Shown: piece after piece, positions 2,988-36,924 of the stretch
Layout of the letters: every line of letters starts with the position of its first letter
Position numbering within the stretch: position 1 is the first letter of the stretch
UHGV virus genome: UHGV-0224961
DNA: 39,860 nucleotides
Strand: one strand, 5' to 3'
Source: a virus
Made by a program: the position numbers and the translations under genes
Notes under the pieces: generated by a model
Database searches by the model: none
Seen by the model: only the letters and a program-made list of their open reading frames with translations
What the model was told of the DNA's origin: nothing

Positions 2988-3869
2988 TTACATAGATGTT
3001 TCGTTTAATTCTTCCCGACGAACGCTGTAAACGTCGGTGGCTTTTGCCAGCAGTTCGTCATCATCTGAAAGTTTTTGTGCAATGTATTTGTAAGCCTTAT
3101 CCAGTTCGGAGACAGTGCTGTAATTCATCGCTGCGCTGGTAAAGGCCATCAGCATTTCTTCTGGATCACGGCTATCCGCTTTACGCGTTTGCTCATCAGG
3201 CTTTTTCACTGGTTTAGCGTTGATCAGACTGTTCATTCCCGCAGCAGTAGTCGTTTGCGGAGTAATGTCTCGCTCAACGCGCGGTGCCGTTTCCTGTAAT
3301 TCGTCAGGGGTGTAAACACCGAGAAGTACATCAGGAGCGTGCAGGCGAGCCCATCGTTTCGTGCAAAGATAGGCAAGCTGCTGGCGCGGATCCTGTTCCC
3401 ACAATGGAGAGTTACGCACTCCGGCTTGCGCCATACTGATGGTAAGCTCACGGGGTTCTGCTTCTCCTTTAAGAACTGCTGACACAGTTACCGTCAGATT
3501 CGGTGATTTATCTGTTTTGCCGTTAACATTCGACCAGTCACCGCTCCAGCGATAATTCAGGCGTGTCGCTAGCAGGCTGGAAGAGGATACGACCGCATTT
3601 ACCAACTGTGCTTCGTAGCCTAACGTTCCGTTTACCACATGCGTTTTCTGCGCCACGGCGAAAGGGTTCATTCCCCACTGTGCCGCCTGCATGGTCACCG
3701 CCAGACAATCGGCAGGTTTGCCTTCAAGATGTTTCGGTACAGTCGCTTTGCTTTGTGACATCAACTCCGCGAAACGCACCAGTTGATTCATGCCCTCCGG
3801 GCTGAAGATTGCCGCAGCAGTACCTACAGTTGCGCCTGGTTGTGATGTGATTGCGATATCATTGCTCAT
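2988..3869 (-). CDS. Single-strand annealing protein (Bet/Redbeta/RecT superfamily)
   Basis: 293 aa; WGMNPF and ERDITP segments resemble lambda Bet as recalled; directly downstream of and overlapping the Exo-like gene. Confidence 0.65.
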   Translation of the reverse strand: MSNDIAITSQPGATVGTAAAIFSPEGMNQLVRFAELMSQSKATVPKHLEGKPADCLAVTMQAAQWGMNPFAVAQKTHVVNGTLGYEAQLVNAVVSSSSLLATRLNYRWSGDWSNVNGKTDKSPNLTVTVSAVLKGEAEPRELTISMAQAGVRNSPLWEQDPRQQLAYLCTKRWARLHAPDVLLGVYTPDELQETAPRVERDITPQTTTAAGMNSLINAKPVKKPDEQTRKADSRDPEEMLMAFTSAAMNYSTVSELDKAYKYIAQKLSDDDELLAKATDVYSVRREELNETSM

Positions 3870-4687
3870 ACGTACATATCCTGTTTACGTGCCCAGTCAG
3901 GGCGTTTAATAATTTCCACTCCGCCCCACTCATCGTTGATGCGGCATTCGTGATAGGTATTCAGATCCCGGCGGAACAGAGCGTGCCCGGCATCGACATC
4001 CGGCGCATCCAGCTCGAACACGCGTACCGGATACCGACCACAATCAATGCTTTCGCTCACGGCAAGAAAGAAAAAACCATGCGGCTGACCAGTAACCCTC
4101 ATTGCGCCTTCGCGGTACATTGCGTCCTGCACGTGGTAGCGGAATTCCTCGATGTGGCGTGCAAAACGGTCCATATCTGCAACCTTTTTCACGTCGACGA
4201 TCACGTTGTGCTCGTTCAGCCATTTGTCTGGACGAATGCGGCACAACTCACCAGTCTCTTCATCATTCCAGTACATTGATGCTTCGCAGTAACCAGGTGC
4301 TTCCAGCATCCAGCGTGCCGCCGGGTGAGCCATTGCGCTATCACGCATAAGCTCCAGTTTCCGCCACTGCTCGGCATCAAGTACCGTAATCCCCATATCC
4401 GCTACATCACGAAGAAATGCTTCTTCGTCAGCTTTACCTTGTTTCGTCCGACGATCGAATTTCGGTGAAACAATGAAGCGTTTGTTGAATTCTCCAGGCT
4501 CCAGAAGCAGACAGTGCAATGCGGTTCCCATATCCAGTGCAGACTTTTTCTCTTCGTCTTCTGGTGCTGCCTGAACCCATTTAAGAAGCGCCGGATTCTT
4601 GGCAACCATGTCCAGTTGCGACTTACTCACGCCGTCACCGGCGTGGTAGTCTTCGTTGCTGATGTCGAAATAAATTCCCGGTTTCAT
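3866..4687 (-). CDS. YqaJ/lambda-Exo-like PD-(D/E)xK exonuclease
   Basis: 273 aa; IRPDKW...DVKK motif; paired with the annealing protein as a Red-like recombination module. Confidence 0.7.
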   Translation of the reverse strand: MKPGIYFDISNEDYHAGDGVSKSQLDMVAKNPALLKWVQAAPEDEEKKSALDMGTALHCLLLEPGEFNKRFIVSPKFDRRTKQGKADEEAFLRDVADMGITVLDAEQWRKLELMRDSAMAHPAARWMLEAPGYCEASMYWNDEETGELCRIRPDKWLNEHNVIVDVKKVADMDRFARHIEEFRYHVQDAMYREGAMRVTGQPHGFFFLAVSESIDCGRYPVRVFELDAPDVDAGHALFRRDLNTYHECRINDEWGGVEIIKRPDWARKQDMYV

Positions 4688-4983
4688 GCCGCGTCCCTCT
4701 GTCCATCAAGCTGATCCGCCAGATCCCAGCGGGCGATAATTGCCATTGCCTCTCGCCGATAGGCATCCATCAGTTCTTCGAACTCAGGGCTGTCTTTAGC
4801 AGCCTCCAGTACTTCCTGACGAACGCCTTTACCTGTTACAACGTCGAAAGTTGAGGACAGTTGATGAAGTCGGATGCTCTCAATCAGTTCAACTTGTCGG
4901 TCATATAGCTGTTCTGACAGGCGGTAGTCCTTGTCGAATGCCAGCATGATTTTTTGAAGATTTTTCTGCTGATTAACGTTCAT
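4684..4983 (-). CDS. Hypothetical early protein
   Basis: Start at ATG 4983 with GGGAGGG RBS 7 nt upstream; ATGA overlap with the exonuclease gene. Confidence 0.55.
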   Translation of the reverse strand: MNVNQQKNLQKIMLAFDKDYRLSEQLYDRQVELIESIRLHQLSSTFDVVTGKGVRQEVLEAAKDSPEFEELMDAYRREAMAIIARWDLADQLDGQRDAA

Positions 4984-5144: not shown

Positions 5145-5234
5145 TTACCTCGGTCTGTTACCGTTGAGGTAATGATTATGCGTATTTGGTTTGGTGTCAA
5201 TAGATATGAGTTAAAAAAATTACCCGTTAGGTAA
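5145..5234. promoter_or_regulatory. OL-like operator cluster: two perfect TTACC-N5-GGTAA palindromes (5158-5172, 5220-5234) plus a TTACC half-site
   Basis: Palindromes lie between the repressor terminator and the first leftward early gene. Confidence 0.6.
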
Positions 5235-5291: not shown

Positions 5292-5876
5292 TTATTGTTT
5301 GTTTTTTTCGTTCTGGTTGATGACAAATTCAATGTAACTTTCGATCTTTGCCTTCTCTGTTTCAGGTAACAATGCGTAGCGCGAGCGGTCATAGTTGATA
5401 GTCGCGGGGTCGTGCGGGTGAATCAGTAATTCATATCCGTGACGCCCAAATGCGGATGCAACATTCTCCAGGGTGGAAATGGAAACGCTGACCTCATTGT
5501 TTAACAGGCGGCTGATTGTTACCTGGGCGACGCCGGATGCGCGGTGAAGTTTTCCCTGCGTTGAAAGGTCGCGGCTTTCGCTCATCCAGCGTTCCAGGTT
5601 GTGAGCCGCCAGTTGACCAATGTCGCTTGGTCCGACAGGCTGAAAACCTTCCTGAGAAAGCGAGCGATCGATATCAAGCCAGTTACGGGGTTTATTGGCG
5701 GCAGCTTCAATTTTTCGCGCAACCTGGTCGCCGATAACCTTCTTGCCAAGAGCCCAGCGGTTTACCAGATTTGCCTGAGTTCCAAGTTTTTCAGCCATCC
5801 GCGTCTGAACACCATTGAATTCACGGTCGATCAAGTCGTTGAGATTTTGCCTGCGGACGTCCTGGATACTTTTCAT
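5292..5876 (-). CDS. CI-like repressor with two HTH-like regions and no S24 peptidase domain
   Basis: 194 aa; N-terminal XRE-type HTH (TRMAEKLGTQANLVNRWALGKK); second HTH-like segment (ASGVAQVTISRLLNNE); no G-S-M / Lys autocleavage motifs seen; flanked by operator clusters. Confidence 0.75.
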   Translation of the reverse strand: MKSIQDVRRQNLNDLIDREFNGVQTRMAEKLGTQANLVNRWALGKKVIGDQVARKIEAAANKPRNWLDIDRSLSQEGFQPVGPSDIGQLAAHNLERWMSESRDLSTQGKLHRASGVAQVTISRLLNNEVSVSISTLENVASAFGRHGYELLIHPHDPATINYDRSRYALLPETEKAKIESYIEFVINQNEKNKQ

Positions 5877-5931: not shown

Positions 5932-5994
5932 TTACCCAACAGGTAAATGCACCTCATGGGTAACTATCCTTGATTTTTGTTACCTTATAGGTGA
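5932..5994. promoter_or_regulatory. OR-like operator cluster: TTACC-CAACA-GGTAA (5932-5946), GCACC-TCATG-GGTAA (5949-5963), TTACC-TTATA-GGTGA (5980-5994)
   Basis: One perfect and two imperfect palindromes in the 154-bp divergent region between the repressor and the cro-like gene. Confidence 0.65.
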
Positions 5995-8238: not shown

Positions 8239-8315
8239 TTACCTGATGGGTAATAAAATATTCTAGTATCTATTGATTTCATGTCTTATGTGGTTTTTAA
8301 TTACCTAAGGGGTAA
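8239..8315. promoter_or_regulatory. Two perfect TTACC-N5-GGTAA palindromes (8239-8253, 8301-8315) bracketing a TATCTA-N14-TATGTGGTT promoter-like motif
   Basis: Second palindrome ends 3 nt before the ATG at 8319. Confidence 0.55.
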
Positions 8316-13260: not shown

Positions 13261-13293
13261 TTACCACAACGGTAACTATTACCACGGTGGTTA
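13261..13293. promoter_or_regulatory. Operator-like TTACC-ACAAC-GGTAA (13261-13275) plus imperfect TTACC-ACGGT-GGTTA (13279-13293) immediately upstream of terS
   Basis: Same palindrome family as at the repressor gene. Confidence 0.5.
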
Positions 13294-13295
13294 TG

Positions 13296-13889
13296 ATGCC
13301 TGCTGAACCTAAAACCTATAAACGCAAATCAACGCAATTTAAGCCACTAACAGCAATGCAGGAGGCTTATTGCCAGTCATACATCAAAACGCCTGAAAAC
13401 CAGACTCAGGCAGCGATTAACGCAGGATTCTCCCCAAATACAGCGGCAGTTAAAGCCAGTGTCATGATGCGCGATGAACGCATTCAAAAACGGATTGCCG
13501 AGTTGATGGAGGAGCGCAACAAACGAATGCGCGTCAGTGCTGATTACGTTCTCATGCGCCTGGTGGAGATCGACCAGATGGACGTGATAGACATCCTCAA
13601 CGACGATGGGAGCCTTAAACCAATCCGCGAGTGGCCGAAAATCTGGCGCACTACGCTTAGCGGCTTTGATCTGTCATCGACCATCATGAACATGAACGAG
13701 GATTCGATAGAGACAATCCTCAAAAAAATTAAATGGCCTGACAAGGTGAAGAACCTTGAGCTGATTGGTAAGCACGTCGATGTCAATGCATTCAAAGAAC
13801 GCCTGGATGTTAATGTGAATGTGACAATTGCTGATCGCATAGCGGCAGCCAGGAAGAGACTGAAAGAACGTCAGGATGGCAATCAGTGA
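13296..13889 (+). CDS. Terminase small subunit
   Basis: Directly upstream of and overlapping TerL; start taken at ATG 13293/13296 (the track ORF begins at a TTG at 13215 that runs through the operator and terminator). Confidence 0.65.
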   Translation: MPAEPKTYKRKSTQFKPLTAMQEAYCQSYIKTPENQTQAAINAGFSPNTAAVKASVMMRDERIQKRIAELMEERNKRMRVSADYVLMRLVEIDQMDVIDILNDDGSLKPIREWPKIWRTTLSGFDLSSTIMNMNEDSIETILKKIKWPDKVKNLELIGKHVDVNAFKERLDVNVNVTIADRIAAARKRLKERQDGNQ

Positions 13890-15361
13890 CAGATGCAGCG
13901 TTATCTCCTGAAGAGCAGTTGATCGAGGATATTGCAGGGTTCACTCACGATCCGCTTGGCTATGCCCTCTATGCGTTCCCGTGGGGGGAAGAGGGGACTG
14001 AATTAGCACATGCCACCGGTCCACGTCAGTGGCAGGCTGATGCGTTCAGAGAGATACGTGATCACCTGCAGAATCCAGAGACGCGATATCAGCCGCTTAT
14101 GCTGGCACGTGCTTCTGGTCACGGTATTGGTAAATCCGCATTCATCTCAATGCTGATCAACTGGGGCATGTCCACTTGCGAGGATTGTAAGGTCGTGGTG
14201 ACCGCCAACACCGACAACCAGCTACGAACGAAGACCTGGCCGGAAATTATCAAGTGGTCGAACCTTGCTATCACGAAAGACTGGTTTACCTGTACCGCTA
14301 CCGCGATGTACAGCAATGACCCTGGGCACGACAAGCGGTGGCGAGCTGACGCAATCCCTTGGTCTGAGCACAACACTGAGGCATTCGCCGGACTACACAA
14401 CGAGCGCAAACGCATCATCGTGGTATTCGATGAGGCGTCGAACATTGCGGATCTGGTGTGGGAAGTTGCCGAGGGTGCGCTAACGGACGAAGACACTGAG
14501 ATTATCTGGGTGGCGTTCGGAAACCCGACGCGTAATACCGGACGTTTCCGCGAATGTTTCCGCAAATATAAACACCGCTGGAAAACTGCGCAGATTGACA
14601 GCCGGACGGTGGAAGGCACTAACAAACAGCAGTTGCAGAAATGGGTTGATGACTACGGGGAAGACAGCGACTTCGTTAAAATCCGTGTGCGCGGCATATT
14701 CCCGGATGCATCTGAATTGCAGTTTATCCCTACCGGACTTACTGACGAGGCAATGAAACGGGTGGTCACCGCTGCGCAGGTGGCACATGCTCCGGTGATA
14801 ATCGGCGTTGACCCGGCATACTCCGGCGTTGATGACGCTGTGATATACCTGCGGCAGGGGCTGCACAGTAAGGTGCTGTGGACTGGCAACAAGACCACTG
14901 ACGATCTGATTATGGCGAAGCGTATCGCTGACTTTGAAGACCAGTACCAGGCTGACGCGGTGTTCATCGACTTCGGTTACGGTACCGGGCTGAAGTCAAT
15001 CGGTGACGGTTGGGGGCGTACATGGCAACTTGTTCCGTTCGGTGGCGCGTCTACTGACCCGCAGATGCTAAACAAGCGCGGGGAGATGTTCAACAGCTGC
15101 AAAACGTGGCTGAAGCTGGGCGGGATGCTGGATGACCAGGAAACAGCGGACGACCTGTCGGCGGCAGAGTACAAAGTTCGCGTGGACGGTAAAATCGTTA
15201 TCGAACCGAAGGAAGATATCAAGGAGCGGCTTGGGCGTTCGCCGGGTAAAGGCGATGCGCTACTGCTGACGTTTGCTTTCCCTGTGTCTAAGCGCCTGCG
15301 AATTCCCGGGCAGCAGAACCAGCAAGGTAAGGCCATCACAGATTACGATCCCTATGCTTAA
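13886..15361 (+). CDS. Terminase large subunit
   Basis: 491 aa; Walker A-like ARASGHGIGKS; C-terminal nuclease-like domain with acidic residues; GTG start overlapping the terS stop. Confidence 0.9.
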   Translation: MTDAALSPEEQLIEDIAGFTHDPLGYALYAFPWGEEGTELAHATGPRQWQADAFREIRDHLQNPETRYQPLMLARASGHGIGKSAFISMLINWGMSTCEDCKVVVTANTDNQLRTKTWPEIIKWSNLAITKDWFTCTATAMYSNDPGHDKRWRADAIPWSEHNTEAFAGLHNERKRIIVVFDEASNIADLVWEVAEGALTDEDTEIIWVAFGNPTRNTGRFRECFRKYKHRWKTAQIDSRTVEGTNKQQLQKWVDDYGEDSDFVKIRVRGIFPDASELQFIPTGLTDEAMKRVVTAAQVAHAPVIIGVDPAYSGVDDAVIYLRQGLHSKVLWTGNKTTDDLIMAKRIADFEDQYQADAVFIDFGYGTGLKSIGDGWGRTWQLVPFGGASTDPQMLNKRGEMFNSCKTWLKLGGMLDDQETADDLSAAEYKVRVDGKIVIEPKEDIKERLGRSPGKGDALLLTFAFPVSKRLRIPGQQNQQGKAITDYDPYA

Positions 15362-15411
15362 TCCGCTGGTGGGGATAATGTCGTTGATATCCTCTGATGA
15401 GGATAAAACAA

Positions 15412-15447
15412 AGCCAGCTTATCGGCTGGCTGTTTGTGACGTGTCAC
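15412..15447 (+). terminator. Hairpin (agccagc/gctggct) followed by palindrome GTGACGTGTCAC downstream of TerL
   Basis: Weak T-run; may act as a partial terminator or protein-binding site. Confidence 0.3.
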
Positions 15448-15488
15448 GACATTAAAATCCATCGAATTCGTATTTCATGATTCACACC

Positions 15489-15514
15489 TTAAAAAAATGC
15501 CCGGCGAACCGGGC
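15489..15514 (-). terminator. Rho-independent terminator on the minus strand
   Basis: gcccgg-cgaa-ccgggc with a 7-A run on plus (U-run on minus). Confidence 0.55.
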
Positions 15515-15591
15515 GAACTGGAAGCAATGAGTTATGCCTTCCGTGGCTGTACTGGTTTACAGCATGAAGTCATCGCAATGGCGTCCTGCTG

Positions 15592-15634
15592 TAAAAAGGG
15601 CGGTGATAGTCCTTCAAGGGAAACCATCACCGCC
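15592..15634 (-). terminator. Minus-strand terminator-like hairpin about 45 nt 3' of the tRNA
   Basis: 9-bp stem ggcggtgat/atcaccgcc followed on minus by UUUUU. Confidence 0.5.
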
Positions 15635-15677
15635 AAGCCCCTGGAACTTCTGGCATCACGGTCCTTAGGCGTGATTC

Positions 15678-15754
15678 TGGCGTGGCATGCAGGATTCGAA
15701 CCTGCGACCAACCGCTTAGAAGGCGGTTGCTCTGTCCAACTGAGCTAATGCCAC
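15678..15754 (-). tRNA. tRNA-Arg (anticodon UCU), phage-encoded
   Basis: Reverse complement folds as a canonical 77-nt cloverleaf: acceptor GTGGCAT/ATGCCAC, D-stem GCTC/GAGC, anticodon stem ACCGC/GCGGT, loop CTTCTAA, T-stem GCAGG/CCTGC, TTCGAAT loop, discriminator G, CCA encoded. Confidence 0.85.
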
Positions 15755-16076
15755 AACGCTGAGAGCACTTAGCCTGTTAAGGCGCCACACTTTGTCGCGG
15801 CTCCATAAATGCTCTCATCGTTGTACCCTCGTCTCTTCCGAGGCGTCACACCGAATCGCCGGGATGGTGAATCCCCGTGCGCGGAATAAAACCGCTCGAC
15901 TTGCACATTCCGGCTACCTGGTTCGTTTGCCCGAGCAAGGGAGGGTGCCCCTTAAACGTATCCAGACCGCTATCGTCGCATGTGCCATACGCCGTACTGC
16001 TCAAAATAAAAGCTCACTCCACCTGTTCAATTTAACGACAAGCCAGTCAGGTTAGTAACTGGAATGAACTCTTTGG

Positions 16077-16143
16077 TTACCTGAAAGGTAATAATTCTCG
16101 CGTTAAATGTCAACTATCTACGATAAATAAATCATATGTGGTT
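16077..16143. promoter_or_regulatory. Perfect operator TTACC-TGAAA-GGTAA (16077-16091) plus TATCTA-N14-TATGTGGTT motif (16115-16143) upstream of the head operon
   Basis: A minus-strand TTGACA -35-like hexamer at 16108-16113 points leftward toward the tRNA. Confidence 0.5.
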
Positions 16144-16181
16144 AAATTGGTAATAATTTAATTGCGTACGGAGTCATTGAT

Positions 16182-16388
16182 ATGTGCATGGGTAGCTCAC
16201 CATCAGTGCCTGCAACACCAGAAGTTCAGGCAGCACCACAGGAGCAGGATGCCGCCGTTGTTGATGCCCGCGACGAAGAAACACGTCGCCGTCGCGCTGC
16301 TGCTGGTCGTAGTTCTACGCTGCTTACCGGTTCTCAGGGCGACACATCAACCGCTAATACCAGCGGTAAAACGCTGCTTGGTCAGTAA
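16182..16388 (+). CDS. Small hypothetical head-operon protein (68 aa)
   Basis: Preferred over the overlapping 16162 frame because the 12 nt upstream (cggagtcattga) are identical to those upstream of the portal start. Confidence 0.5.
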   Translation: MCMGSSPSVPATPEVQAAPQEQDAAVVDARDEETRRRRAAAGRSSTLLTGSQGDTSTANTSGKTLLGQ

Positions 16389-16402
16389 CCGGAGTCATTG
16401 AA

Positions 16403-18082
16403 ATGGCGGAAACAACTAAAGAGCGATTGAACAAACAGTTCGCACAACTTGAAAGCGAGCGTCAGTCGTTCGAGCCGCACTGGCGCGAGTTGAGTGATTA
16501 CATCAACCCGCGTGGTTCCCGCTTTCTGACTTCTGAGGTCAACCGTAACGATCGACGCAATACACGCATTATTGATTCTACCGGTACTATGGCGGCGCGC
16601 ACTCTCGCCAGCGGCATGATGTCAGGCATCACAAGCCCCGCGCGTCCGTGGTTTCGCCTGGCTACGCCAGATCCTGAAATGATGGATTATGGCCCTGTTA
16701 AGTTGTGGCTTGAGGCGGTGCAGAACCGCATGAACGATATGTTCAATAAGTCGAATCTCTACCAGTCTCTTCCGCAGTTATACGGAAGCCTCGGCACATA
16801 CAGCACTGGTGCAATGGCGGTGCTGGAGGATGACGAGGACATCATTCGCACAATGCCATTCCCGATAGGCAGTTACTACCTGGCTAACTCACCTCGTGGC
16901 AGTGTGGACACCTGTTTTCGCAAGTTCTCTATGACTGTTCGTCAGCTTGTTCAGGAGTTCGGGCTAAATAACGTCAGCGAATCCGTAAAAAGCATGTGGG
17001 AAAGCGGCACCTACGAGAAGTGGATTGAAGTGATGCATTCGGTTTACCCGAACATTGACCGCGATACATCGAAGCTGGATAGCAAGAACAAGCCATTCAA
17101 ATCGGTTTATTACGAGGTTGGTGGCGATAACGACAAGTTGTTGCGTGAGTCCGGATTCGATGAGTTTCCAATTATGGCTCCGCGCTGGGAAGTTAACGGC
17201 GAAGATGTTTATGGATCATCATGCCCGGGTATGCTGGCGCTTGGACCTGTTAAGGCATTGCAGCTTCTCCAGAAGCGCAAGTCGCAGTTGATTGATAAAG
17301 CCACCAATCCGCCGATGGTTGCTCCGACTTCCCTCAAGAATCAGCGCGCCTCCCTTCTTCCTGGCGACATCACGTATATCGATCAGATTACTGGTCAGGA
17401 TGGTTTCAGGCCTGCTTATCTGGTTAACCCCAGTACAGCAGATCTGGTAGCAGACATTCAGGACACCCGCCAAATCATTAACAGCGCCTACTTTGTCGAT
17501 CTGTTCATGATGTTGCAGAACATCAATACCCGCTCGATGCCTGTTGAAGCGGTGATCGAAATGAAAGAAGAAAAACTTCTGATGTTGGGGCCGGTTCTGG
17601 AGCGTCTGAACGACGAATGTCTTAATCCTCTCATTGACCGCGCTTTCTCGATGATGGTGCGTAAAAACATGCTGCCGCCACCGCCTGACGCGATGGAAGG
17701 TATGCCCCTGAAGGTCGAATACATTTCTGTCATGGCTCAGGCGCAGAAGTCTATCGGCCTGTCCAGTCTGGCGTCCACGGTTAACTTCATTGGTCAACTT
17801 GCGCAAGCGAAACCAGAAGCTCTCGACAAACTCAACGTTGATCAGGCGATCGATGCATTCGCTGATATGTCCGGAGTGTCTCCAACCGTCATTGTTCCGC
17901 AGGAACAGGTTGAGCAGGCTCGCCAGCAACGGGCACAGCAACAACAGCAGCAACAAATGATGGCGATGGGGATGGCGGCGGCACAGGGTGCCAAGACGCT
18001 AAGCGAAGCTAAAACTTCGGATCCGAGTGTTTTGTCAGCTATGGCGAATGCAGTTAGTGGTCAGGGTGGGCAATCACAATGA
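16403..18082 (+). CDS. Portal protein
   Basis: 559 aa, follows TerL, precedes scaffold and capsid; Q-rich C-terminal tail. Confidence 0.8.
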   Translation: MAETTKERLNKQFAQLESERQSFEPHWRELSDYINPRGSRFLTSEVNRNDRRNTRIIDSTGTMAARTLASGMMSGITSPARPWFRLATPDPEMMDYGPVKLWLEAVQNRMNDMFNKSNLYQSLPQLYGSLGTYSTGAMAVLEDDEDIIRTMPFPIGSYYLANSPRGSVDTCFRKFSMTVRQLVQEFGLNNVSESVKSMWESGTYEKWIEVMHSVYPNIDRDTSKLDSKNKPFKSVYYEVGGDNDKLLRESGFDEFPIMAPRWEVNGEDVYGSSCPGMLALGPVKALQLLQKRKSQLIDKATNPPMVAPTSLKNQRASLLPGDITYIDQITGQDGFRPAYLVNPSTADLVADIQDTRQIINSAYFVDLFMMLQNINTRSMPVEAVIEMKEEKLLMLGPVLERLNDECLNPLIDRAFSMMVRKNMLPPPPDAMEGMPLKVEYISVMAQAQKSIGLSSLASTVNFIGQLAQAKPEALDKLNVDQAIDAFADMSGVSPTVIVPQEQVEQARQQRAQQQQQQQMMAMGMAAAQGAKTLSEAKTSDPSVLSAMANAVSGQGGQSQ

Positions 18083-33018: not shown

Positions 33019-33073
33019 TCACCTGAAAGGTAATATCTGTTCGTATTTATGGGTTATCTATCCATATGTGGTT
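33019..33073. promoter_or_regulatory. Operator-like TCACC-TGAAA-GGTAA (33019-33033) plus TATCTA...TATGTGGTT motif (33055-33073) upstream of the tailspike
   Basis: Same motif family as at 8239 and 16077. Confidence 0.5.
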
Positions 33074-36519: not shown

Positions 36520-36924
36520 ATGTCAGCTCAACTAACCAGTGAAACTTTAAATCAGTGGCTTAGCATGAGTTCTTTGGCGGCAGTGATAGCAGGAGTTCCT
36601 CCTGAGGTTGCTTTGGGGTCTTTGGCTGGGGCGGTGATTTTTGTTACCTCTGCGGTAGAGTATCCCATTCGTCGTCGCGTGCTCTTGTCGATGCTTAGCT
36701 TTCTCTGCGGACTTCTATTCTACAAACCAGCAGCATCAATTCTTATCGGCATAGCCAGCCTGATCCCTACAATCACACAGGATTCTTTCGAGAAAGGGAT
36801 TGTTTTCTCTGCCGGTGCATTTGTGTCAGCAATCGTCGCTGTGCGAATTGGGATCTGGCTCTATCACCGTTCCGATAATCCACGCGAGTTAATTCCGGGG
36901 AGAAAAGACGATGGTAACTCATGA
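36520..36924 (+). CDS. Holin-like membrane protein
   Basis: Multiple TM segments; first gene of the lysis cassette; start ambiguous between GTG 36511 and ATG 36520. Confidence 0.5.
   Translation: MSAQLTSETLNQWLSMSSLAAVIAGVPPEVALGSLAGAVIFVTSAVEYPIRRRVLLSMLSFLCGLLFYKPAASILIGIASLIPTITQDSFEKGIVFSAGAFVSAIVAVRIGIWLYHRSDNPRELIPGRKDDGNS

Follow-up and report, generated by a model that had tools for sequence, protein, structure and literature searches.

A widespread structured RNA module in the repressor-controlled early leader of a Uetakevirus phage is a candidate processive antitermination element

Here, we present a comparative analysis of a non-coding leader region in the virus genome UHGV-0224961. 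The stretch analyzed, which we refer to as the window, has 39,860 nucleotides and represents the complete genome of a temperate podophage of the epsilon15/phiV10 type (genus Uetakevirus), with ~98% identity to the Escherichia phages phiv142-3 and phiV10. The leader lies on the minus strand between the large terminase gene (13886-15361, plus strand) on its left and a small conserved open reading frame (ORF; 16182-16388, plus strand) on its right, which is followed by the portal gene (16403-18082, plus strand). A preliminary description, made from the sequence of the window alone, had proposed an operator-overlapped leftward promoter, a structured leader of ~300 nt and a tRNA at this position, and had suggested that the transcript may be a repressor-controlled small RNA (sRNA) or a tRNA precursor. 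We found that the core of the leader is an RNA module of ~175 nt that recurs in several groups of temperate phages, and we ask here what this module may do. The features of the leader, in the order in which leftward transcription would meet them, are as follows.

16085-16113, minus strand: candidate leftward sigma-70 promoter, with the -35 element TTGACA at 16113-16108, a 17-nt spacer and the -10 element TACCTT at 16090-16085.
16077-16091: operator-type palindrome TTACCTGAAAGGTAA, a perfect TTACC-N5-GGTAA, which overlaps the -10 element and start region of the leftward promoter.
16008-16073, minus strand: hairpin A, a long imperfect hairpin predicted by folding at the 5' end of the leader and followed by a U-rich run at 16007-16000.
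15823-15996, minus strand: core structured RNA module, matched by our covariance model R1 with 135.7 bits and E = 2e-43, as a single copy in the window.
15755-15825, minus strand: Y-shaped 3' extension that links the core to the tRNA and is common to one lambdoid subgroup only.
15678-15754, minus strand: tRNA-Arg (anticodon UCU), found by ARAGORN and by the Rfam tRNA model (73.3 bits), a co-transcribed cargo.
15590-15634, minus strand: T1, an intrinsic terminator-like element with the 14-bp stem GGCGGUGAUGG...CACCGCC (15634-15599), followed by CUUUUUACA.
15489-15514, minus strand: T2, an intrinsic terminator-like element with the stem-loop GCCCGG-UUCG-CCGGGC (15514-15499), followed by AUUUUUUU.

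In what we regard as the best explanation, and still tentatively, the minus strand from 16113 to 15489 would be a single repressor-controlled, non-coding early transcription unit made up of promoter and operator, hairpin A, the pseudoknotted module, the Y-shaped linker, tRNA-Arg(UCU) and two tandem intrinsic terminators. No protein gene lies within this unit in the window.

At its 5' end, the unit is as the preliminary description had it. The plus strand reads TGTCAA at 16108-16113, i.e., the consensus -35 hexamer TTGACA on the minus strand, and the operator covers TACCTT together with the start region. With transcription predicted to start near 16078, the leader runs ~320 nt to the tRNA, close to the ~300 nt first estimated. 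The -35 element, the spacing, the -10 element and the operator are retained across the window, Tyrion, SPN9TCW, epsilon15 and a Klebsiella phage, each of which has a different spacer sequence; the palindrome is invariant in these five phages, all of which are Uetakeviruses and whose hosts are Escherichia, Enterobacter, Klebsiella and Salmonella. Constant hexamers, spacing and operator around a divergent spacer are the pattern of a functional promoter-operator pair and suggest that the promoter is active. Because the -10 element fits the consensus at only three of six positions (T1, A2 and T6), a simple sigma-70 consensus scan of the window did not list this promoter. In the GenBank record of epsilon15, the homologous palindrome is annotated as a repressor site. 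TTACC-N5-GGTAA, with up to one mismatch, occurs 12 times in the window versus 0.66 ± 0.82 times expected, a number reached in none of 100 shuffles, and four of these operator-type copies flank the helix-turn-helix repressor gene at 5292-5876. The sites (136-150, 5158-5234, 5932-5994, 8239-8315, 13261-13293, 16077-16091, 33019-33033 and 36644-36658) are dispersed genome-wide, as pairs at the immunity region and as single or paired copies ahead of several operons, a layout that resembles the dispersed C1 operators of P1 and differs from a lambda-type switch.

The module itself is built from four covarying helices and an H-type pseudoknot. From 5' to 3', it comprises the hairpin H1 (ACGGCRUAUG-GCA-CAUGYGYCGU); the helix H2 (UCYG/CRGG), which closes a variable hairpin; an invariant GGUAGCCGGAAUGUGCAAG followed by a second variable hairpin; the hairpin H4, which gives rise to the pseudoknot through pairing of its loop CACC with GGUG further downstream; and the hairpin H5 (CCUCG-GAAGAGA-CGAGG) with the loop GAAGAGA. 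The peripheral hairpins vary, 55 of the 156 model positions are invariant, many of the invariant nucleotides are single-stranded, and the 19-mer core GGTAGCCGGAATGTGCAAG is nearly invariant among module copies. In a structural alignment of 29 representatives with less than ~90% mutual identity, written in the sense of the window minus strand, 95.9% of the cells are standard pairs, versus 87.3% in shuffled alignments and 29-52% with slid partners, and 11 pairs change on both sides. In a larger alignment of 76 distinct sequences, 13 pairs and 214 cells have changed on both sides, with 95.9% of the cells paired versus 85% after shuffling. This alignment was made by a covariance model from which the pseudoknot was absent; the first pseudoknot pair is C-G in 51 of the sequences and A-U in 18, and mEp460 naturally has AACC opposite GGUU. 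Because the opposite strand pairs in only 83.9% of the cells, with G-U pairs accounting for 12.4% of the cells on the sense strand, the RNA is the minus-strand transcript, i.e., the strand on which every neighboring tRNA lies. RNAalifold placed in its consensus a long-range pairing between GCACAU, in the 5' hairpin loop GGCACAU, and an invariant AUGUGC as an alternative to H1. As all of its bases are invariant and it would compete with the 5' hairpin, which does covary, we rejected it as the main structure; it may be a tertiary or alternative contact. The module is a genuine RNA family that is specific to one strand and under structural constraint. The structured minus-strand leader of the preliminary description is thus borne out by comparative covariation and not by the energy of the leader as a whole: because the whole-leader folding energy is unexceptional on either strand (z about -1.6), the case for structure rests on comparison.

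The leader thus contains one copy of a phage RNA module that is widespread, under strong constraint and apparently undescribed. A covariance search with Rfam and structure prediction with conservation across relatives had been named as checks in the preliminary description. The second gave the pairing and compensatory changes described above; in the first, nothing but the tRNA matched in the leader region. With Rfam 15, only the tRNA passed the gathering threshold in the window, no match at E up to 10 in 15350-16420 overlapped 15823-15996 on the minus strand, and the homologous loci of P1, mEp390, Stx2a_1447 and SPN9TCW gave only tRNAs and noise at E up to 1. A full-text literature search for the conserved sequence strings of the module returned no match among the papers covered, and no description of the module was found in the literature on put, antiterminator RNAs, phiV10/epsilon15 and AgvB.

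Based on blastn, 15755-15995 is ~82% identical to unannotated DNA of the lambdoid phages cdtI, mEp460, Ayreon and 2H10 and of Stx2c- and Stx2a-converting phages, and 15833-15995 is ~80% identical to P1, P7, D6, SJ46 and RCS47. The module sequence is present in 1840 of 5426 complete E. coli genomes (34%) and in 591 plasmid records, mostly P1-like; among the matches listed, no annotated feature lies under the module in the E. coli genomes, and no record annotates the module as an RNA. Scanning viral contigs for the 19-mer GGTAGCCGGAATGTGCAAG gave at least 120 stretches. As an independent check, an unrelated 5' motif was scanned over one genome per species and gave 23 true members, all from Enterobacterales except one 1.7-kb contig labeled as a Bacillota metagenome-assembled genome (MAG). 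Because 22 of these 23 members carry the exact 19-mer, the invariance of the 19-mer is no search artifact. These searches show that the module is common to three unrelated groups of enterobacterial temperate phages (the lambdoids, the podoviruses of the genus Uetakevirus and the P1-like phages) and that it always lies in repressor-controlled early transcripts. Two copies stand apart: the Bacillota-labeled contig carries a typical enterobacterial module (L162 1157-1313), and the module of Stenotrophomonas phage BUCT708 (L012 1512-1663) is very similar to that of a Klebsiella prophage, which suggests mis-binning or an unexpected host range. The type phage, epsilon15 (L005 1446-1536), is a deletion derivative that keeps only the first ~60 nt of the module; one deletion took the rest of the module, tRNA-Arg and the 5' half of T1.

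What precedes the module is similar in otherwise different phages. It starts ~80 nt past the predicted transcription start in the window and ~35 nt past it in SPN9TCW. In Ayreon, a promoter matching the consensus at 11 of 12 positions (TTGACA-16-CATAAT) directly follows the cI terminator, and the module lies ~45 nt further on, i.e., in the PL leader, where nutL or putL lie in other lambdoids. A CI-type repressor gene, in some records annotated as cI or repressor, is the nearest same-strand upstream gene in 58 loci, at a distance of 93-233 nt. P1 has the module within the C1-repressed ban operon, upstream of ban and 15 nt past trnI. It is co-oriented with transcription and with all nearby tRNAs. 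The common denominator of the module loci is, then, a repressor-controlled early lytic transcript, and in the two larger groups the module is promoter-proximal as well. The tRNA is not part of this common denominator: it lies 64-130 nt downstream of the module in Uetakeviruses, it is a tRNA-Ile2 upstream rather than downstream in P1-like phages, and at 86 of 134 module loci there is no tRNA within 1.5 kb. Directly after the P1 module (L006 2400-2480, minus strand), we observed a 15-codon ORF with a good ribosome-binding site, the stop codon of which overlaps the start of ban (UAAUG); this arrangement suggests that ban may be translationally coupled to a leader peptide.

What follows the module varies in sequence and recurs in kind. 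Terminators were identified with an RNAfold-based scan together with motif counts, as a scan limited to loops of up to 8 nt misses the long-loop terminators of lambdoid leaders. Among 118 non-identical, phylogenetically related loci, a T1-type motif lies downstream on the sense strand at 77, a T2-type motif at 45 and one or the other at 92, whereas each of the three counts is 0 on the antisense strand. These terminators lie 170-640 nt past the module, not at its end, and the intervening sequence is variable. The module has no terminator of its own, and its 3' flank may be a tRNA, a gene or a convergent moron; in L075, a gene starts only 11 nt after it. Such variable flanks fit an element whose target is the polymerase and not the adjacent sequence, and together with the lack of its own terminator they fit a cis-acting leader element better than an sRNA.

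In phiV10 and epsilon15, as read from their sequences, the U-tract of T2 is followed at once by the ribosome-binding site of a cargo gene, which leaves no room for a promoter; the translated upstream extensions of ORFs point to the same junction in SPN9TCW and the Klebsiella phage. The cargo is a Phage_gp49_66 protein in phiV10 and epsilon15, an unrelated 168-aa protein in SPN9TCW and a DUF2829 protein in the Klebsiella phage. This slot is empty in the window (15362-15498) and corresponds to L003 1125-1496, L004 1088-1594 and L009 635-1156; it behaves as a moron site with the gene behind, not before, a terminator. In mEp460, the first PL gene lies ~35 nt past a terminator hairpin of -38.8 kcal/mol. 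None of the first PL genes is annotated as encoding an N-like protein, and Pfam and PHROGs gave only families of unknown function for them. N-less lambdoids with unexplained early antitermination have been noted in a survey (PMC12315714), and 2H10, a relative named there, carries the module. Of 124 loci, only 3 have a boxA-like sequence after the module, and none lies in or beside the window module. In those three loci (L094 3357-3372, L038 and L051), an exact rrn-type boxA (UGCUCUUUAACAA) with a hairpin before it stands ~25-30 nt after the module.

Repeats around convergent genes were seen at two loci. In the prophage L032, two tandem module copies (3996-4154 and 4803-4959), the second partly decayed, flank a convergent membrane-protein gene, and in a second prophage, L094, the 32 nt that precede the module (3128-3160) are repeated after a convergent gene (4097-4130). 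The flanks of the module seem to serve as recombination joints for moron insertion.

Two further structures frame the module in the window. The base stem of hairpin A shows compensatory changes, read by eye, among the window, Tyrion, the Klebsiella phage and epsilon15, and three of its G-U pairs are possible only in the minus-strand RNA. The homologous hairpin of epsilon15 is annotated by the authors of that record as an RNase III site, and SPN9TCW lacks hairpin A. On the 3' side, the minus-strand fold of 15830-15750 is a Y shape of -38.5 kcal/mol (z = -5.8), and the pairing of gagagca (15761-15767) with tgctctc (15811-15817), which had been proposed in the preliminary description, exists within it. 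In this linker, 98.9% of the cells pair across 12 variants and every natural change preserves pairing, evidence that is modest, the sequences compared being 93% identical. The linker is ~82% identical to cdtI, mEp460 and Stx2c phages, and its pairing reaches the first bases of the tRNA. Homology to the lambdoids ends exactly at the tRNA boundary. In the lambdoid PL leader of L094 (4150-4270), we also noticed hairpin A-like sequence, including the GUCGUUAAAU loop region, and T1-like sequence, in an order that differs from that of the window (16008-16073 and 15599-15634). The whole leftward unit of the Uetakeviruses looks to have been assembled from modules that circulate among PL leaders.

We favor the reading that the module is a cis-acting, put-like processive antitermination RNA that is not homologous to the put RNAs of HK022 and HK639, and we assign it a probability of roughly 40%. 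According to this model, the module would fold co-transcriptionally just past the promoter and affect, in cis, the RNA polymerase that is transcribing it, in the manner of HK022 put RNA. The polymerase modified in this way would resist the intrinsic terminators T1 and T2, and probably also Rho across the long untranslated stretch, and transcription would thereby reach the tRNA and the genes directly behind the terminators, which in N-less lambdoids would be the PL operon. The position of the module, its independence of the downstream content, the terminators right before the first genes and the lack of N all point, still tentatively, in this direction. With slightly more reserve, we suggest that the module may be a new structural class of polymerase-modifying antiterminator RNA unrelated to put, that it may be the missing early antitermination device of many N-less lambdoids, and that it may also drive epsilon15-like and P1-like transcription through untranslated tRNA stretches and moron-gating tandem terminators.

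Several points weigh against this reading. It is drawn from sequence and context, and the transcript, the function of the terminators and the read-through are all predictions. The layout also fits a discrete non-coding RNA (ncRNA) gene that ends at T1 or T2. The motif counts, such as 92 of 118, come from related loci and are not independent events. Model R1 finds no similarity to the put elements of HK022 or HK639. Each phage record has one module copy, and HK022 has both putL and putR; on the PR side, no second, putR-like copy is present in the locus sequences compared, in which the tandem of L032 is the sole duplicate. In P1 and SopranoGao, the module is operon-internal and no T1 or T2 follows it. 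Finally, the three boxA-bearing loci suggest that a Nus-factor-dependent signal can coexist with the module.

The closest parallel is provided by the put RNAs. Those of HK022 (putL and putR) and HK639 (putL-like) act in cis, bind the zinc-binding domain of the beta' subunit of RNA polymerase and bring about factor-independent processive antitermination (PMC9378689). Both put and the module are non-coding and structured, in N-less lambdoids both are transcribed no more than ~100 nt behind an early promoter under repressor control (putL of HK639 starts 74 nt after its annotated pL), and in both cases terminators follow that have to be overcome before the early genes are reached. Stem I of put resembles the first module hairpin in having ACGGCG on the 5' side and CAUGCGUCG on the 3' side, with the same G-U pair, a likeness noted by eye that is not significant by blast (E = 2.3). 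A homology of the two was rejected on a comparison with HK022 putL (L136 ~808-749, minus strand) and HK639 putL (L168 9313-9188, minus strand): R1 finds nothing there, whether its default filters are used or, on 300-nt stretches, switched off, and by blast only a 9-mer and 6- to 8-mers are shared. The two also differ in architecture, as the module has ~175 nt with four helices and a pseudoknot and put ~70 nt with two stem-loops; in copy number, with a single copy per phage versus left and right copies; and in range, as podoviruses (Uetakevirus) and P1-like phages have the module too, frequently with tRNAs next to it. Antitermination is known for put and predicted for the module.

The antiterminators of lambda nut and rrn type, which consist of boxA, with a YGCUCUUUAACAA-like consensus, and a short boxB hairpin and depend on N and Nus factors, stand where the module stands in the PL leader and likewise have terminators to overcome ahead of the early genes. 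In contrast to them, the module has no boxA in or beside its window copy and, as described above, a UGCUCUUUAACAA-like boxA after it in only the three loci, no N-like protein was found downstream of it, and it is far larger and more conserved than boxB. A third comparison is with the P4 CI RNA and the C4 RNA of P1 and P7, immunity RNAs that are processed from early leader transcripts, partly by RNase P. Like the module as placed here, these are phage ncRNAs from repressor-related early leaders that tRNA-type enzymes cut, and P1 carries both C4 and the module. However, there is no similarity in sequence or model, and Rfam, including its C4 family, gave no match to the module; moreover, those RNAs pair with nearby target repeats, and no such repeats were seen at the module.

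The strongest competitor of the antitermination reading, which we consider somewhat less likely, is that the module is the functional core of a stable, trans-acting ncRNA that extends from the repressor-controlled promoter to T1 or T2. Such an RNA would be trimmed by RNase III at hairpin A and by RNase P/E at the tRNA, and would bind or sequester a host or phage factor during early lytic growth, e.g., as a protein sponge, an anti-defense decoy or a base-pairing regulator. Its own promoter and the conserved, co-oriented terminators 170-640 nt downstream would delimit such a transcript, the annotated RNase III hairpin and the flanking tRNAs would be ready processing sites, and the many invariant single-stranded nucleotides suggest a binding surface. 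The unit in the window lacks a protein gene, and the module moves as a unit among unrelated phages. However, the variable 3' neighbors, with the gene start 11 nt away in L075, and the lack of an own terminator are ill suited to a discrete RNA; in lambdoids, the early-left genes would be left behind the terminators with no visible promoter; and in P1 the module stands mid-operon, directly before ban. Thus, of the two proposals in the preliminary description, the repressor-controlled sRNA keeps some standing, and a cis-acting leader fits the same features better.

It is improbable that the module is a riboswitch-like leader that senses a ligand or condition and gates early lytic transcription by the state of the host. 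The location in a 5' leader, the aptamer-like conservation (55 of 156 positions), the pseudoknot and the variable peripheral hairpins all recall such elements, and the alternative pairing of the loop GGCACAU with AUGUGC would offer a possible switch. However, this pairing, being confined to invariant bases, has no support from covariation; behind H5 there is no conserved expression platform but variable sequence with no U-tract; control of translation is excluded, since what follows can be a tRNA; and there is no match to an Rfam riboswitch.

More improbable still is that the module serves as a mere 5' leader or processing scaffold of the tRNA-Arg precursor. In Uetakeviruses, the short distance to the downstream tRNA and the pairing of the Y-shaped linker up to the first tRNA bases would fit this, but the distribution contradicts it, given the many loci without a tRNA, the upstream position of tRNA-Ile2 in P1-like phages and the exact stop of lambdoid homology at the tRNA boundary. 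The tRNA precursor of the preliminary description, accordingly, holds for this leader and does so only incidentally; in general it fails, as the core is an independent module.

The least probable reading of all is that the module is a protein-coding gene, either small or decayed, or that it acts at the DNA level, as a recombination linker or packaging site: hypothetical ORFs are annotated across it (mEp460 gp37, mEp390_036, Ayreon 0037 and Tyrion gp54), its borders coincide with mosaic junctions and its duplicate copies flank the moron in L032, but the annotated ORFs lie on different strands and in different frames, and the compensatory changes and G-U pairs fit one RNA strand only. A protein-coding origin, which the preliminary description had named as one outcome that would overturn its proposal, was rejected because the two variable hairpins range over 26-50 nt and 20-41 nt with lengths in every residue class modulo 3, i.e., insertions and deletions are out of frame, and because Pfam gave no match for the four overlapping ORFs of the window. 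The doubt expressed there about these ORFs was justified, as there is no support for coding on either strand. The RNA function would be compatible with an additional role of the DNA as a recombination hotspot.

Public records contain hypothetical proteins antisense to the tRNA or across the module, with differing strands and frames. They correspond to the following positions and are probably false gene calls.

Window 15497-15748, plus strand: hypothetical ORF antisense to the tRNA.
L003 1519-1770: PhiV10p04.
L007 2430-2798: mEp460 gp37.
L013 1342-1584: mEp390_036.
L166 5061-5180: hypothetical ORF.
L010 1350-1511: hypothetical ORF.

To the right of the leftward unit, the ~70 nt between the leftward -35 element and the small ORF (16114-16181), which include TTAAATTGGTAATAATTTAA, are near-invariant in five Uetakeviruses, a conservation far above that of the neighboring promoter spacer. 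This stretch probably serves the structural operon, either as its rightward late promoter or as a regulator site.

To our knowledge, put is the only natural RNA family able to reprogram bacterial RNA polymerase unaided. The module would add to it a second class of polymerase-modifying RNA with a structure of its own, provided that the antitermination reading is true. Many lambdoids without N have no explained way past their early terminators, and the module is a well-defined candidate with clear covariation for this role; the question can be tested directly with simple reporter constructs and compensatory pseudoknot mutants. One in three complete E. coli genomes carries the module, which is found in Stx2c- and Stx2a-converting prophages, in P1-type plasmid prophages and in O157-typing phages, among others. 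Altogether, whatever its mechanism, it is a widespread structured phage RNA that current annotation has missed and that is labeled as hypothetical proteins in several records.

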